A DNA stretch of 64,000 nt, taken from Escherichia coli. GTDB lineage: Bacteria > Pseudomonadota > Gammaproteobacteria > Enterobacterales > Enterobacteriaceae. Below are positions 6,136 through 30,565 of this stretch, piece by piece. The stretch lies in assembly GCF_044324875.1 (NCBI RefSeq), contig NZ_CP172185.1; one strand, 5' to 3'. The notes under the pieces were generated by a model that did no database searches, was not told where the DNA came from, and worked only from the letters and a program-made list of their open reading frames with translations. Numbering within the stretch: the first letter of the stretch is position 1; every line of letters starts with the position of its first letter. Made by a program: the position numbers and the translations under genes.

Positions 6136-9100
6136 TTATTTCCGTACCCGATGTCGGTGCAGCCACATCAGCTTATATGCCGCCGGGATAATAAACAGCG
6201 ATAGCAAAGGCGCGGTGATCATGCCGCCAATCATCGGCGCGGCAATCCGGCTCATCACCTCTGAACCTGCTCCCGTTCCCCACAGAATCGGCAGCAGACC
6301 AGCGATAATCACCGCCACCGTCATCGCTTTCGGGCGCACGCGCAGGACCGCGCCGTGATACAACGCCTCATCCAGCTTCTGCTCGCTGAATGTTTGCGGA
6401 TTATTCAACGACGGCTCGGCCTCTATGGCGTGACGTAAATACATCAGCATCACCACGCCAAATTCGGCGGCAACCCCGGCGAGGGCAATAAAACCGGTGC
6501 CCGTCGCCACGGAAAGATGAAAGCCCATCCACCACAGCAACCAGATGCCGCCCACCAGCGCAAACGGTACGCTGCTGATAATCAGCAACGCTTCGCCCAC
6601 CCGACGGAACGCCAGATATAACAGCACGAAGATGATCATCAGCGTCATCGGCACCATGAGTTTCAGCTTATGGTTGGCGCGTTCCAGTAGCTCGAACTGC
6701 CCGGAGAATGCCACGCTGGTGCCCGGTTTTAACTGTACTTTTTCAGCTATCGCTTTTTGCAGATCGTGAACCACCGACACCATGTCACGATCGCGGGCAT
6801 CGATATAAATCCAGCTCGTCGGGCGCGCATTCTCGGTTTTCAGCATCGACGGTCCGGTAGAGACTTTAACGTCGGCCACGTCTGCCAGGGTGATTTGCTG
6901 CTTCATCGGCGTCAGGATCGGCAACTGGCGCAGCGCCTGCGGACTATCGCGCCAGCTTTGCGGATAACGCAGATTAATTGGATAACGGGCAATCCCTTCC
7001 ACCGTTTCGCCAACCATCGCCCCGCCCACCGCAGAAGTCACAAACAATTGCACATCCGCCACCGTCATACCGTAACGCGCGGCTTTTTCACGGTTAATCT
7101 CAACGTTGATATAGCGCCCACCTTCCAGACGCTCAGCAAGCGCAGAAGCTACGCCTGGCACCGTTCGTGCCACTTCTTCAATTTGCTCAGCCATCGCGTC
7201 GATATCCGCCAGCACAGTACCGGAAACTTTAATGCCGATGGGGCTTTTAATGCCAGTCGAGAGCATATCGATACGGTTACGAATTGGCGGCACCCACAGA
7301 TTCGCCAGCCCCGGCAGCCGCACGGTGTTATCCAGTTCCTCGATGATTTTGTCCATCGTCATGCCTGGCCGCCACTGCTCTTGTGGCTTAAGCTGGATGG
7401 TCGTTTCTACCATCTCCAGCGGAGCAGAATCGGTGGCGGTTTCCGCTTTGCCGGTTTTGCCAAATACCCGCGCCACTTCAGGTACGCTCATAATCAGCTT
7501 GTCGGTTTTTTGCAGCATAATCGCCGCCTCTGCTGCGGAAATCCCCGGCAGCGTCGATGGCATATACAACAAGTCACCTTCATTGATCTGCGGTAAAAAC
7601 TCCCCGCCAACTTTATTGAGCGGCCAGAGAACCGTCAGCACCGAAAGCGCTGCCACCAGCAGCGTGGTTTTCGGCCAGTGCAGTACTTTCAGCAACAGCG
7701 GATGATAAACACGAATCAAAAAGCGATTGAGCGGGTTACTGCTTTCCGGCGGAATTTTGCCACGGATCCAGTAGCCCATCAGGATAGGGATCACTACGAT
7801 CGCCAGCAGCGCCGCACCCGCCATCGCATACGTTTTGGTGAACGCCAGCGGGCCAAACAGACGCCCTTCCTGCCCTTCCAGGGTGAAGATCGGGATAAAC
7901 GACAACGTGATAATCAGCAGACTGATAAACAGCGCCGGCCCCACTTCAACAGATGCATCGGTGATCACCTGCCAGCGCGTTTTATTATCCAGCGTGGCGT
8001 CAGGATGCTGGTGCTGCCACTCTTCCAGCCGTTTATGCGCATTCTCGATCATGACGATAGCGGCATCGACCATCGCCCCGACGGCAATAGCAATACCGCC
8101 CAGCGACATAATATTGGCGTTCAGTCCCTGAAAGTGCATGACAATAAAAGCAATACACAACCCCAGCGGCAACGAAATAATCGCCACCAGCGCCGAGCGC
8201 ACATGCCAGAGAAACAGCGCACAGACTACCGCCACCACAATAAACTCTTCCAGCAACTTGCCGCTGAGGTTGTCGATGGCGCGGTCAATGAGCTGGCTGC
8301 GATCGTATGTTGTAACTATCTCCACGCCTTCCGGCAGACTACTTTTCAGCGTTTCCAGTTTGTCTTTCACGGCGGCGATCACTTCTCGGGCGTTTTTGCC
8401 GGAGCGCAGGATCACCACCCCGCCCGCCACTTCGCCTTCGCCGTTCAGTTCGGCAATGCCCCGGCGCATTTCCGGGCCAATCTGGACCTTCGCAACATCA
8501 CGCAGATAAACGGGCACGCCATTTTCACTGGCTTTTAAAACGATGTGATTAAAGTCGTCGAGCGTTTGCAGATAGCCGCTGGCTCGCACCATATATTCCG
8601 CTTCCGCCAGTTCGATCGACGAACCGCCCGCTTCCTGGTTTGAAGCATCCAGCGCGCTTTTTACTTCGGCGAGACTGATGCCATATTGCGCCAGGCGCTG
8701 AGGATCGATAACCACCTGATACTCTTTCACCACACCGCCTACCGACGCCACTTCCGCAACGTCAGGAATGGTTTTCAGCTCATATTTGAGAAACCAGTCC
8801 TGCAATGAGCGTAAATCGGCCAGATCGTGCTTACCGCTGCGATCCACCAGTGCATATTCATAGATCCAGCCAACACCCGTGGCATCTGGCCCCAACTCGG
8901 CGCTGACTCCCGCAGGCAGCTTACCCTGTACCTGGTTGAGGTACTCCAGCACCCGCGAGCGCGCCCAGTACGGATCGGTGCCATCTTCGAAAATGACATA
9001 CACATAAGAGTCGCCAAACTGCGAAAAACCGCGCACAGTCTTCGCGCCAGGCACCGACAACATGGTGGTGGTTAGCGGATAAGTCACCTGATTTTCAACG

Positions 9101-9279
9101 ATTTGCGGTGCCTGACCGGGATAGCTGGTTTTAATAATCACCTGCACATCGGAGAGATCCGGCAGCGCATCCACTGGCGTATTAATGATGGTCCAGGTGC
9201 CCCAGATACTCAGAAATAACGCGCCCATCAGCACCAGAAAACGGTTCGCCACCGAGCGACGAATAATCCATTCAATCAT
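6136..9279 (-). CDS. cusA: Cu(I)/Ag(I) efflux RND transporter CusA
   Basis: 1047-aa RND permease, last gene of cusCFBA. Confidence 0.95.
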
Positions 9280-9290
9280 TGGTTATTCCC

Positions 9291-10514
9291 TCAATGTGCA
9301 TGGGTAGCACTTTCAGAGCGCATCCGCTCCAGTGCGCCAGAAATATTGGCTTCGGAATCAATCAGGAACAGGCCGCTGGAAACCACCTTTTCACCTTCCG
9401 CCAGACCAGAGCGTAACGCGGTGACGCCTTGCGATGCCTGGAAAACGGCAACGCGTTTCGGTACAAAGCGCCCGTCGGCATCAACGGTAATCACCCGCTG
9501 TTCGTTGCCGGTATCAATCAGCGCCTGTGACGGAATGAGCAGCATCGGTTCGCTGGCGGTGTTGAGTTGCAACCAGGCGTTCATTCCCGGTTTTAGCGCC
9601 TCGTCGGCGTTGTCGACTTCCAGACGCAGCTGCAACGTGCGGGTCGCGGCATCCACGCCAGGTAGTAGCGTCCATTTGCGGATGGTGAGTGTTTTATCAG
9701 GTCGCGCCGGAACGGTGAGCGTAAACTGCGAGGCATCTTTCACCAGCCAGGCGATGGACTCCGGGATCGCAGCAGTGACCCACACCGGGTCCATACCCTG
9801 AATTTTCGCGACCACGTTATCTTTGGCGATATTCATTCCCGCGCGCAGATCAAACGCGGTGATCACGCCATCAATGGGCGCTTTGAGCGTAAAGCGAGTC
9901 TGTATTTTTTGCGTGGCGATCAGGCGGCGAATATCCGCCTCCGGCATTCCCGCCAGTCTCAGCCGCTCAAGAATGCCTTCAGTCTGGGTCGCCGTACCGC
10001 CGGTTTCGCGCAGCAGTAAATACTCACTCTGCGCTTCCACCCAGTCGGGAATGGTCAGGTCGAGAAGCGGTGTGCCCTTTTGTACTTTATCGCCCACGGT
10101 AAGCGGATACACCTTGTCGATAAACCCGGCAGCGCGAGCCTGCACAATGGCATACTGATACTCGTTGTAACTGACATTCGCCGGGAAACTCTGGGCAAAA
10201 GTCAGCGGTCCGCGCGTGACGGTAGCCGTTTTCACCCCCAGATTCTGCGTCTGAGTCGGGTCAATGCGCACACCAGACGCAGAACTCTCTTCATCGGCAT
10301 ATTTCGGCACCAGATCCATATCCATAAACGGCGATTTACCTGGTTTATCGAACCGCGTATTGGGATACATCGGGTCGTACCAGAATAAGATTTTACGTTC
10401 TGCGGTCGACGTTTTTTCTGCGGGCGGTTCAGCCCGGTCAAACCAGGTAAAACCTGCCGCAGAAATAATACCGCCCGCGATCATGCTGCCGATAATAAGC
10501 GCGATTTTTTTCAT
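9291..10514 (-). CDS. cusB: Cu(I)/Ag(I) efflux membrane fusion protein CusB
   Basis: 407 aa, signal/TM N-terminus, between cusF and cusA. Confidence 0.93.
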   Translation of the reverse strand: MKKIALIIGSMIAGGIISAAGFTWFDRAEPPAEKTSTAERKILFWYDPMYPNTRFDKPGKSPFMDMDLVPKYADEESSASGVRIDPTQTQNLGVKTATVTRGPLTFAQSFPANVSYNEYQYAIVQARAAGFIDKVYPLTVGDKVQKGTPLLDLTIPDWVEAQSEYLLLRETGGTATQTEGILERLRLAGMPEADIRRLIATQKIQTRFTLKAPIDGVITAFDLRAGMNIAKDNVVAKIQGMDPVWVTAAIPESIAWLVKDASQFTLTVPARPDKTLTIRKWTLLPGVDAATRTLQLRLEVDNADEALKPGMNAWLQLNTASEPMLLIPSQALIDTGNEQRVITVDADGRFVPKRVAVFQASQGVTALRSGLAEGEKVVSSGLFLIDSEANISGALERMRSESATHAH

Positions 10515-10529
10515 CTCATTAAACCTGGG

Positions 10530-10862
10530 TTACTGGCTGACTTTAATATCCTGTAATAAAGAAAGGTTGCCCTGCTGGACAAAATTAAACGCCACTTTGT
10601 CGCCAGTTTTAATTTCACTCATTTTCGTCTGCGGAGTGATGGTAAAGCGCATGGTCATCTCCGGCCAGTTCACGGCAGCAATCGGATCGTGATGGATGGT
10701 GATTTTTTTGCTTTCCAGATCAACACCTTTTACCACGCCGGTGGCACTAATGACCTGTGGTTGTGCTTCGCTCATGGTTTCATGATGATGTTCGTTAGCC
10801 TGGGCATTAAAGCCAATCACGGTAAACAGACTGAACATTGCGACTTGCAGTGCTTTTTTCAT
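10530..10862 (-). CDS. cusF: Periplasmic copper/silver chaperone CusF
   Basis: 110 aa with signal peptide and His/Met-rich motifs. Confidence 0.93.
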   Translation of the reverse strand: MKKALQVAMFSLFTVIGFNAQANEHHHETMSEAQPQVISATGVVKGVDLESKKITIHHDPIAAVNWPEMTMRFTITPQTKMSEIKTGDKVAFNFVQQGNLSLLQDIKVSQ

Positions 10863-10885: not shown

Positions 10886-12268
10886 TTATTGCTGCCAACC
10901 GCCACCAAGTGCGGTATATAAAGAAATTTCGTTGACCTGACGGGCATAATTCAGGTCAAGTAAGGTTTGTCGGGTTGCAAATAAAGAACGCTCGGCATCC
11001 AGCACTTCCAGATAACTGACTGCGCCGTGCTGATATAATGCCCGCGCCCGTTGCAAAGTAATTTGCAGCGACGCCAGATAACGCTGCTGGGCGCTGATTT
11101 GATCGTTCAGGCTTTGACGTAATGCCAGCGCATCTGCCACTTCTTTAAAGGCGTTCTGGATTTTCTGTTCATAATTCACTACCGACTGCTGCTGGCGAAT
11201 TTCGGCGATATCCAGATTGGCCTGGTTGCGTCCGGCATTAAAAATGGGGATCTCAATTTTAGGAATAAAATTCCACATCCCGCTGCTGGCGTTAAATAAT
11301 GACGACAGATCGCTGCTGGCGGTTGATATTCCGCTGGTCAGGCTTATAGATGGGAAAAATGCCGCGCGTGCGGCCCCAATATTGGCATTAGCCGCCATTA
11401 ACGCGTGTTCAGCTTCCATAATATCCGGGCGCTGCAATAAGATTTGCGACGACAAGCCCGCCGGTAATTTAACGCTTTGCAGGCTGTCGCTGTTTACTGT
11501 CTGCGCTTGCGGCAGCTTGCCGTAGCTTCCCAATAATAGTTGCAATGCATTATTCGCCTGCGCCAGTTCCCCCTGACGTTTAGCGATGTCGCTGCGGGTA
11601 CTTTCAATCACCCCGCGAGCCTGTTCCAGCGCCAGAACATTGCTGCTACCGGTCAACAGTTGTTTTTCGACAAACGCATATGACTGCTGATAATTACGCA
11701 GCGTTTCTTCGGCTATTTGCAATTGCGCATACGCCAGCTGCTGATTGAAATATCTTTGCGCGACATTAGAAACCAGCAGAATATGCACCGCGCGCTGGGC
11801 TTCCTCAGTGGCTAAATAATTTTGTCGCTCGGCTTCGCTCATGTTCTTTAAGCGACCGAAAAAATCGAGATCAAAGCTGGCGTTAAGGCCAGTCGAGAAC
11901 TCCCGCGTCGTGGCTGAATCGCCTTTAAGATTGCCGCTCCAGCTGCCGCTGCCCTCGCCATTGAGCTGTGGGTAGCGGTCGGCATCGGTCAGACGATATT
12001 GCGCCCGCGCTTCCTGCACTTTCAGCGTCGCCATGCGCAAATCCCGGTTATTCACCAGCGCCTCGCTAATCAGCGTCTTCACCTGATTATCAACAAAAAA
12101 GGTGCGCCAGCCCGCGTTCTGGTAGTTATCTGCTGCGTTAACCAGGCCGTTCTGGTTGAGTGAGAACTGCTGCGGCACGGGCATTGCCGGGCGCTGATAA
12201 TCCGGTGCCAGTGAACAACCGGTTAGCGCAAGGGCCACACAAAATGGCAGAAGTTTACAAGGAGACAT
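10886..12268 (-). CDS. cusC: Outer membrane efflux channel CusC (lipoprotein)
   Basis: OMF family protein; lipobox LTGCS near the N-terminus. Confidence 0.93.
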   Translation of the reverse strand: MSPCKLLPFCVALALTGCSLAPDYQRPAMPVPQQFSLNQNGLVNAADNYQNAGWRTFFVDNQVKTLISEALVNNRDLRMATLKVQEARAQYRLTDADRYPQLNGEGSGSWSGNLKGDSATTREFSTGLNASFDLDFFGRLKNMSEAERQNYLATEEAQRAVHILLVSNVAQRYFNQQLAYAQLQIAEETLRNYQQSYAFVEKQLLTGSSNVLALEQARGVIESTRSDIAKRQGELAQANNALQLLLGSYGKLPQAQTVNSDSLQSVKLPAGLSSQILLQRPDIMEAEHALMAANANIGAARAAFFPSISLTSGISTASSDLSSLFNASSGMWNFIPKIEIPIFNAGRNQANLDIAEIRQQQSVVNYEQKIQNAFKEVADALALRQSLNDQISAQQRYLASLQITLQRARALYQHGAVSYLEVLDAERSLFATRQTLLDLNYARQVNEISLYTALGGGWQQ

Positions 12269-12337
12269 AGGCTCATAATTTCTGGTGATTTTATGCCGCC
12301 AACTTTACTCGCCAGGCTCTGATTTTCCGGTGACAGG

Positions 12338-12359
12338 AAAATGACAAAATTGTCATTTT
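12338..12359. promoter_or_regulatory. CusR box (response-regulator operator) in the divergent cusC-cusR promoter
   Basis: Perfect 22-bp palindrome AAAATGACAAAATTGTCATTTT in the cusC-cusR intergenic region, matching the known CusR site. Confidence 0.8.
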
Positions 12360-12424
12360 GCCAATAAGCGATTGCCATCTGATCCCGCTACTCTAGAATT
12401 GCCCGGGCAACATGCGGAGGAAAT

Positions 12425-13108
12425 ATGAAACTGTTGATTGTCGAAGATGAAAAGAAAACCGGAGAATACTTGACCAAAGGGTTAACCGAAGCCGGTTTTG
12501 TGGTCGATTTGGCCGACAATGGGCTGAATGGCTACCATCTGGCGATGACCGGTGATTATGACCTGATAATCCTCGATATTATGCTGCCGGACGTGAACGG
12601 CTGGGATATCGTGCGCATGTTGCGCTCCGCCAATAAAGGGATGCCGATTCTGTTGCTTACCGCGCTTGGTACCATTGAACATCGCGTCAAGGGGCTGGAG
12701 TTGGGGGCGGATGACTACCTGGTGAAGCCGTTCGCTTTTGCTGAACTGCTGGCGCGGGTGCGCACTCTACTGCGGCGCGGGGCGGCGGTAATTATCGAAA
12801 GTCAGTTTCAGGTTGCCGATTTGATGGTCGATCTCGTCAGCCGCAAAGTCACCCGTAGCGGCACGCGCATCACGTTGACCAGTAAAGAATTTACTTTGCT
12901 GGAGTTTTTCCTCCGCCATCAAGGTGAAGTGCTGCCCCGCTCGCTTATCGCCTCGCAGGTGTGGGACATGAATTTCGACAGCGATACCAACGCCATTGAT
13001 GTGGCGGTGAAGCGGCTGCGCGGCAAAATCGACAACGACTTTGAGCCAAAGCTGATTCAGACCGTGCGCGGCGTGGGTTACATGCTAGAGGTGCCGGATG
13101 GTCAGTAA
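12425..13108 (+). CDS. cusR: Copper-responsive response regulator CusR (OmpR family)
   Basis: 227 aa, receiver domain plus winged-helix domain; divergent from cusC. Confidence 0.95.
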
Positions 13109-30541: not shown

Positions 30542-30565
30542 CCGGATGCGAAAACTCGCATCCGG
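30542..30565. terminator. Hairpin terminator between convergent ybcI and cysS
   Basis: Palindrome CCGGATGCG-AAAACT-CGCATCCGG directly after the ybcI stop. Confidence 0.55.

Follow-up and report, generated by a model that had tools for sequence, protein, structure and literature searches.

In E. coli, the response regulator CusR has been assigned a binding site, the palindrome AAAATGACAAnnTTGTCATTTT, between the divergent cusRS and cusC(F)BA operons, as given in PMC11195947, which cites Munson 2000; the same source, citing Yamamoto & Ishihama 2005, states that no other CusR site is present on the chromosome. ChIP-chip gave one CusR peak genome-wide, in the cusC-cusR spacer (bioRxiv 10.1101/2020.08.17.251918), and genomic SELEX placed CusR and, separately, HprR in this spacer, where HprR gave a single high peak (PMC8249747). 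HprR is reported to recognise the same sequence as CusR with a different affinity, and both regulators recognise the cus and the hprR-hiuH boxes (PMC8249747). Phosphorylated CusR activates both divergent cus operons (PMC10920338, PMC11522558), and Reg-Seq detected a copper-dependent activation at cusC. Unphosphorylated CusR has been described as a repressor of cusCFBA (PMC8249747), and the sign of cusCFBA regulation without inducer is not fully settled. Setting the primary footprint papers aside, the later literature places no CusR site elsewhere in the spacer.

Two other regulators are relevant to this comparison. In Cupriavidus metallidurans, footprinting and mutagenesis showed that AgrR, a homologue of CusR, uses a 6-4-6 inverted repeat, ATKACANNNNTGTMAT, together with an in-phase promoter-proximal direct repeat; both repeats contribute to activation, and a Type II activator position was proposed (PMC7380067). 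That box belongs to another organism and another regulon, and AgrR was active in its unphosphorylated form in the mutant that was studied. For E. coli CusR, a similar role of the direct repeat is putative. PhoB, in turn, has a ChIP-seq site at cusR/cusC in K-12, with the motif TGTCATTTTTCTGTCACC (Fitzgerald et al. 2023, PMC10294691, Table 1 and text), and cusC dropped about 4-fold, from 208 to 50, when phoB was deleted (PMC10294691).

The window analyzed here, that is, the whole stretch of 64,000 nucleotides, contains a cusC-cusR spacer of 156 bp (12269-12424) that is limited by the ATG of cusC (12268, minus strand) and by the ATG of cusR (12425, plus strand). The genes on its two sides are the following:

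6136-9279, minus strand: cusA, TIGR00914, full length
9291-10514, minus strand: cusB, NCBIfam NF007303, full length
10530-10862, minus strand: cusF, NCBIfam NF007348, full length
10886-12268, minus strand: cusC, 460 aa, first gene of cusCFBA, NCBIfam NF007347, 901.7 bits, full length
12425-13108, plus strand: cusR, 227 aa, OmpR-family response regulator, NCBIfam NF007346 equivalog, 507.9 bits, residues 1-227 of 227
13098-14540, plus strand: cusS, 480 aa, sensor histidine kinase, NCBIfam NF007345, 983.1 bits, residues 1-480 of 482

Since all six cus ORFs beside the spacer are full length, with scores far over the NCBIfam cut-offs, and since 356 bp around the spacer are 100% identical to E. coli CFSAN061763, the cus circuit is physically intact in this strain and its box is unchanged, in line with the first-pass annotation, which had described an intact copper/silver-responsive circuit. 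The site itself reads as follows:

12338-12359, strandless: CusR box, AAAATGACAA-AA-TTGTCATTTT, with an asymmetric centre AA
12341-12356: core of the CusR box, ATGACA-AAAT-TGTCAT

The 22-bp sequence AAAATGACAAAATTGTCATTTT is found as a single copy in the 64-kb window (0 matches in 100 shuffles) and equals the published box AAAATGACAAnnTTGTCATTTT letter for letter, its asymmetric bases falling on the 'nn' of the latter. With cus genes on both sides, the repeat is indeed the CusR operator that the first-pass annotation had recognised, and its location between the divergent cusRS and cusCFBA operons agrees with the RefSeq annotation of the identical region. It had also been placed midway between the two divergent starts, which holds since 69 nt separate it from the cusC start codon and 65 nt from that of cusR. 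Its description as a perfect 22-bp palindrome has to be softened: the site is an inverted repeat, but its reverse complement mismatches at the 2 central positions, leaving 20 of 22 positions symmetric, and the repeat finder returned two 10-nt arms that are 100% complementary with 2 nt in between. Altogether, the repeat is the already published CusR operator, and its identification is correct, ordinary and not new.

Two perfect inverted repeats in the window have arms of 10 nt or more separated by 0-6 nt, compared with a mean of 0.57 per 64-kb window in first-order Markov simulations, 41% of the simulated windows containing at least one. The symmetry is thus not statistically unusual in 64 kb and palindrome quality by itself is weak evidence; as it was not significant in simulation, we did not count it as evidence for a CusR box. 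The same frequencies are what one would expect of an AT-rich inverted repeat that arose by chance and has no function of its own. However, we find such an origin hardly conceivable and exclude it because of conservation and of the exact match to the published 20-base consensus: the half-sites are invariant among loci whose CusR proteins are 58-89% identical and whose flanks are divergent, and the repeat sits at a fixed position with respect to both cusR and a -10 hexamer. The non-randomness of the site thus comes from its exact match to the 20 specified bases of the consensus, from its position in the cus spacer and from its conservation. A relaxed search of the window (up to 3 mismatches) gave no more additional box-like sites than expected by chance.

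Conservation within the species is very broad. Of 5426 complete E. coli genomes, 5335 contain the 356 bp around the spacer and 5231 contain the 40-bp segment with the box at its centre; over these 40 bp, 3379 of 5232 matching records were identical and 1853 had 1-2 differences. In the three variant E. coli alleles that were read, the box was unchanged and all the SNPs fell outside, at 12337 (G/A, in K-12 and in a chicken isolate) or at 12364 (A/C, in a cattle isolate). K-12 has the same 22-bp sequence, flanking genes and spacer length (156 bp), and nothing of substance differs; the sole difference in the spacer is at 12337, one base outside the box, where K-12 and strain DSM 103263 have A and the window has G. 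The more frequent allele is that of the window (3379 of 5232 records identical over 40 bp). Going by the ChIP-chip and genomic SELEX data obtained on the identical K-12 sequence, the repeat of the window would be bound by CusR, and the box would be needed for the Cu/Ag- and cusR-dependent induction of cusC that is stated in the literature.

Outside E. coli, at least 120 loci matched when one genome per species was scanned for AATGACAANNTTGTCATT; about 41 of these correspond to one non-coding Collinsella locus unrelated to cus, so that the scan provides examples and not a census. Among the loci listed, six have the box directly upstream of a CusR orthologue (58-89% identity), in Denitrificimonas, Lelliottia, Enterobacter, Providencia, Collimonas and one metagenome contig. 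The distance from the box centre to the regulator start ranges from -75 to -82 in 8 loci (7 genera or replicons), with 76 nt in the window, and an alignment of seven orthologous or paralogous loci showed that the central dinucleotide varies (AA, TG, AT) and that the arms are constant. On a sil/pco plasmid, ATGACAATGTTGTCAT lies between silC and silR, and box-like sites are also found upstream of pcoE and silE. The SilR operator of IncHI2-type sil/pco plasmids and the pcoE and silE boxes share with the window the series ATGACAA-NN-TTGTCAT, CTGTCAC, 22 nt and -10, and the SilR operator lies at the same distance from its regulator gene as does the box of the window. It differs by its centre (TG versus AA in the window) and by its outer A/T flanks (GATAATGACAA...), and the sil spacer has about 31 additional nt on its silC side.

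The alignment of the seven spacers revealed one more invariant block, GTGAC (12330-12334), on the cusC side of the box:

12330-12336, minus strand: third half-site CTGTCAC (GTGACAG on the plus strand), in phase with the left arm at 11 bp and present on the cusC side alone

Read toward cusC, the order is TGACAA-NN-TTGTCAT, TTTC, CTGTCAC, with 11 bp from the TGACA of the third half-site to that of the left arm. Among the 18-mer matches listed (at least 120), all 7 CusR-family loci have xGTCA in this register and none of the 113 others does, for a chance expectation of about 1 among the 244 orientations examined, and the third half-site is always on the side opposite to the regulator gene; the cusR side of the box has no extra half-site. 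The core ATGACA-AAAT-TGTCAT fits ATKACANNNNTGTMAT, or ATKACA-N4-TGTMAT, of the AgrR/CopR/PcoR type, and the in-phase direct repeat of the AgrR type is present in the window as CTGTCAC (12330-12336), 11 bp away in register. This extension is thus known in kind, from the published PhoB site and from the AgrR layout. The first-pass annotation had limited the operator to the 22-bp repeat: the box stands, its extent does not, and the comparison of sequences argues for a larger operator to which the third in-phase half-site on the cusC side probably belongs.

This half-site could also serve PhoB only. It is part of a second recognisable element:

12329-12346, minus strand: Pho-box-like direct repeat TGTCAT-TTTC-CTGTCACC, two TGTCA-type repeats with an 11-bp periodicity

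The element differs from the published 18-nt PhoB motif at a single position, 12337, which falls in its 4-nt spacer (TTTC here and TTTT in K-12, owing to the G at 12337). The common natural G/A SNP thus lies in the spacer of the third-half-site/PhoB element. Together with the PhoB ChIP-seq peak, the lower cusC level in phoB deletion cells and the single high SELEX peak of HprR, this overlap could mean that the spacer is mainly a target of PhoB or HprR, with CusR control being secondary. We judge this very unlikely, since the box accompanies cusR/silR orthologues at a fixed distance in every genus examined and since the sole CusR ChIP-chip peak lies in the cusC-cusR spacer. The HprR (YedW)/CusR box at hprR-hiuH, CATTACAAAATTGTAATG, is informative in this respect: its layout (CATTACA-AAAT-TGTAATG, N4, CTGTAAG, 22 nt, TATCCT) shares with the cus site the 6-4-6 register, the N4 gap and the 22 nt to a TAnnnT hexamer, but its half-sites are TTACA/TGTAA at all three positions instead of TGACA/TGTCA at cus. 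That the third half-site becomes TGTAA along with the palindrome fits a cognate regulator of the CusR/HprR type on this site rather than PhoB. The classical Pho box replaces the -35 element and lies about 10 nt upstream of the -10 element. In the window, the direct repeat is 22 nt from the predicted cusC -10 TAAAGT and overlaps the CusR box instead of being free-standing, which does not match the classical spacing; as the -10 is predicted and the 10-nt rule is a general one, this gap argues only against a canonical pho promoter and not against PhoB binding. We keep the reading of a CusR operator that overlaps a PhoB site.

The third half-site also has a constant relation to the candidate promoters of the spacer, for which all positions given here (-10, -35, starts, -53.5 and -57.5) are predicted:

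12302-12307, minus strand: predicted cusC -10 TAAAGT, 22 nt downstream of the third half-site
12372-12399, plus strand: predicted cusR promoter TTGCCA-16 nt-TAGAAT, 10 of 12 matches

On the cusC side, ACTxTA in the -10 region is kept in both spacer alignments, and the -35 position is occupied by CCGGAA, which matches poorly, as one would expect if the promoter depends on an activator. A TAnnnT hexamer lies exactly 22 nt past the third half-site in 11 of 11 promoters compared (cusC, silC, pcoE, silE and seven genomic loci), a comparison from which the pcoA promoter was left out since its third half-site (TGTTT) and its -10 are ambiguous, and the half-sites are invariant across these 11 promoters. 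On the cusR side, the sil, Enterobacter and Lelliottia loci retain both TAGAAT and the -35 trinucleotide TTG.

These promoter positions also bear on whether the palindrome could work as an RNA hairpin, i.e., as an attenuator or a terminator. As RNA, 12326-12371 has a folding energy of -12.7 kcal/mol (z = -3.2 versus shuffles), but such an energy is common to any palindrome. The flanking genes are divergent and the box is upstream of both predicted promoters, so that it is probably not transcribed; in addition, a scan of the spacer for terminator-like sites found none, and the centre of the repeat varies while its arms never change, giving no compensatory change that would reveal a selected stem. 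We thus ruled out an RNA hairpin, which we regard as having a negligible probability, on the basis of its position upstream of both predicted promoters and of the lack of compensatory changes.

We consider it highly probable that the E. coli copper/silver two-component system CusS-CusR uses this repeat as its operator, through the following steps, which draw on the literature and on established knowledge. Periplasmic Cu(I)/Ag(I) would activate CusS, which would phosphorylate CusR, and CusR on the inverted repeat of the spacer would then turn on both divergent promoters, those of cusCFBA and cusRS. With a predicted cusC start near 12295, the centre of the palindrome would be at about -53.5 and the third half-site at about -41 to -35, a geometry that would be expected for an activator of the OmpR/PhoB type touching the RNA polymerase. 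Since the third half-site is found on the cusC promoter, which has no usable -35, the RNA polymerase could be contacted there by an extra CusR protomer or by two protomers bound head to tail on half-sites 2 and 3. With its good hexamers (TTGCCA-16-TAGAAT), the cusR promoter is probably basally active, and the box, near -57.5 of this promoter with its predicted start near 12406, would boost it, which would amount to a moderate positive autoregulation. HprR may bring a peroxide/hypochlorite signal to the box and PhoB a phosphate limitation signal to the direct repeat of half-sites 2 and 3; as both would act on the same DNA, the spacer may be a small signal-integration point.

The regularity of three half-sites and 22 nt across the cus, sil, pcoE, silE and hiuH promoters is the sole mildly new element of this analysis. 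One may speculate, although we have more doubt than confidence in this idea, that the operator of CusR/SilR/PcoR/HprR is a fixed module made of the inverted repeat, N4, a direct-repeat half-site, exactly 22 nt and a -10, always facing the structural operon. In such a module, the third half-site and the palindrome would change type in step, the third site would be occupied by the cognate regulator and not just by PhoB, and the output of the palindrome would be polar, or asymmetric, at the divergent promoter; this rule is perhaps undescribed for enterobacterial regulators. For those building PcusC copper biosensors or interpreting cus regulation, the operator should be taken as 12329-12359, so as to include, besides the palindrome, the third half-site, where the PhoB site also lies. 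For the strain itself, the finding confirms a wild-type copper/silver sensing and efflux circuit and carries little weight beyond annotation.

Several loci among the scan matches and on the plasmids showed other gene contexts. In Moritella sp. JT01 (L116, 8660-8762), the full module, ATGACAAAATTGTCAT, N4, TAGTCAG, 22 nt and TAGAAT, lies 85 bp upstream of a gene for a 616-aa multicopper oxidase, with a CusR-like regulator (54% identity) encoded 4 kb off; this suggests that the same operator design may control PcoA/CopA-type genes in marine Moritella. In Collimonas sp. OK307 (L100, 4471-5962), the adjacent regulator is 58% identical to CusR and the module faces an ORF of 229 aa without Pfam match, followed by a cytochrome b561-family gene, instead of a cusC-type gene. 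The pcoA promoter of plasmid pRHB16-C11_2 (L004, 8440-8560) has a palindrome of the TTACA type, CATTACA-CGAT-TGTAATG, like the hiuH box, while pcoE, silE and silC on the same plasmid have the TGACA type, so that one resistance island holds both operator variants.

The Collinsella locus, which makes up a third of the listed scan matches, is of another kind. In L005 (11022-11119) and in about 40 other genomes, a highly conserved non-coding stretch contains AAATGACAACGTTGTCATTT, preceded by a GC-rich hairpin and followed 23 bp on by an imperfect copy, ATGACAACGTAAGACAT; the unit is duplicated in one genome (L045). No cus-like genes were found near this locus, and the stretch looks like the operator of an unrelated regulator.

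Within the cus spacer, a 20-nt direct repeat was also seen, 12269-12288 (AGGCTCATAATTTCTGGTGA) and 12314-12333 (AGGCTCTGATTTTCCGGTGA), whose two copies are 80% identical at a distance of 45 bp, the second of them having its end in the third half-site. We rejected this repeat as an element of its own, since it is not kept in the sil spacer and is probably due to chance.

Three other features of the window were noted. At the cusS-nfrB junction (14521-14543), the window lacks an island of about 10 kb that CFSAN061763 carries there, with genes for a T6SS Vgr protein, a DcrB-related protein, a 1620-aa zincin-like toxin and an ISEc1 transposase. The 3' end of cusS forms the junction, and CusS has 480 aa in the window versus 482 aa in CFSAN061763. 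At about 20960-22100, collinearity with L125 indicates envY, then directly tRNA-Arg(tct), then fimZ, and the tRNA-Arg(tct) gene was confirmed at 21767-21843 on the minus strand. In K-12, we take this tRNA gene to be the insertion site of the DLP12 prophage, with ompT and appY; DLP12 appears to be missing there in this strain, as in CFSAN061763. Finally, the second of the two perfect inverted repeats counted above, CCGGATGCGAAAACTCGCATCCGG at 30542-30565, lies between the convergent genes ybcI and cysS, as assigned by collinearity. The terminator scan made no call at 30542-30565, where there is no T run, and the repeat contains CCGGATGCG, which we presume to resemble a REP-element sequence.
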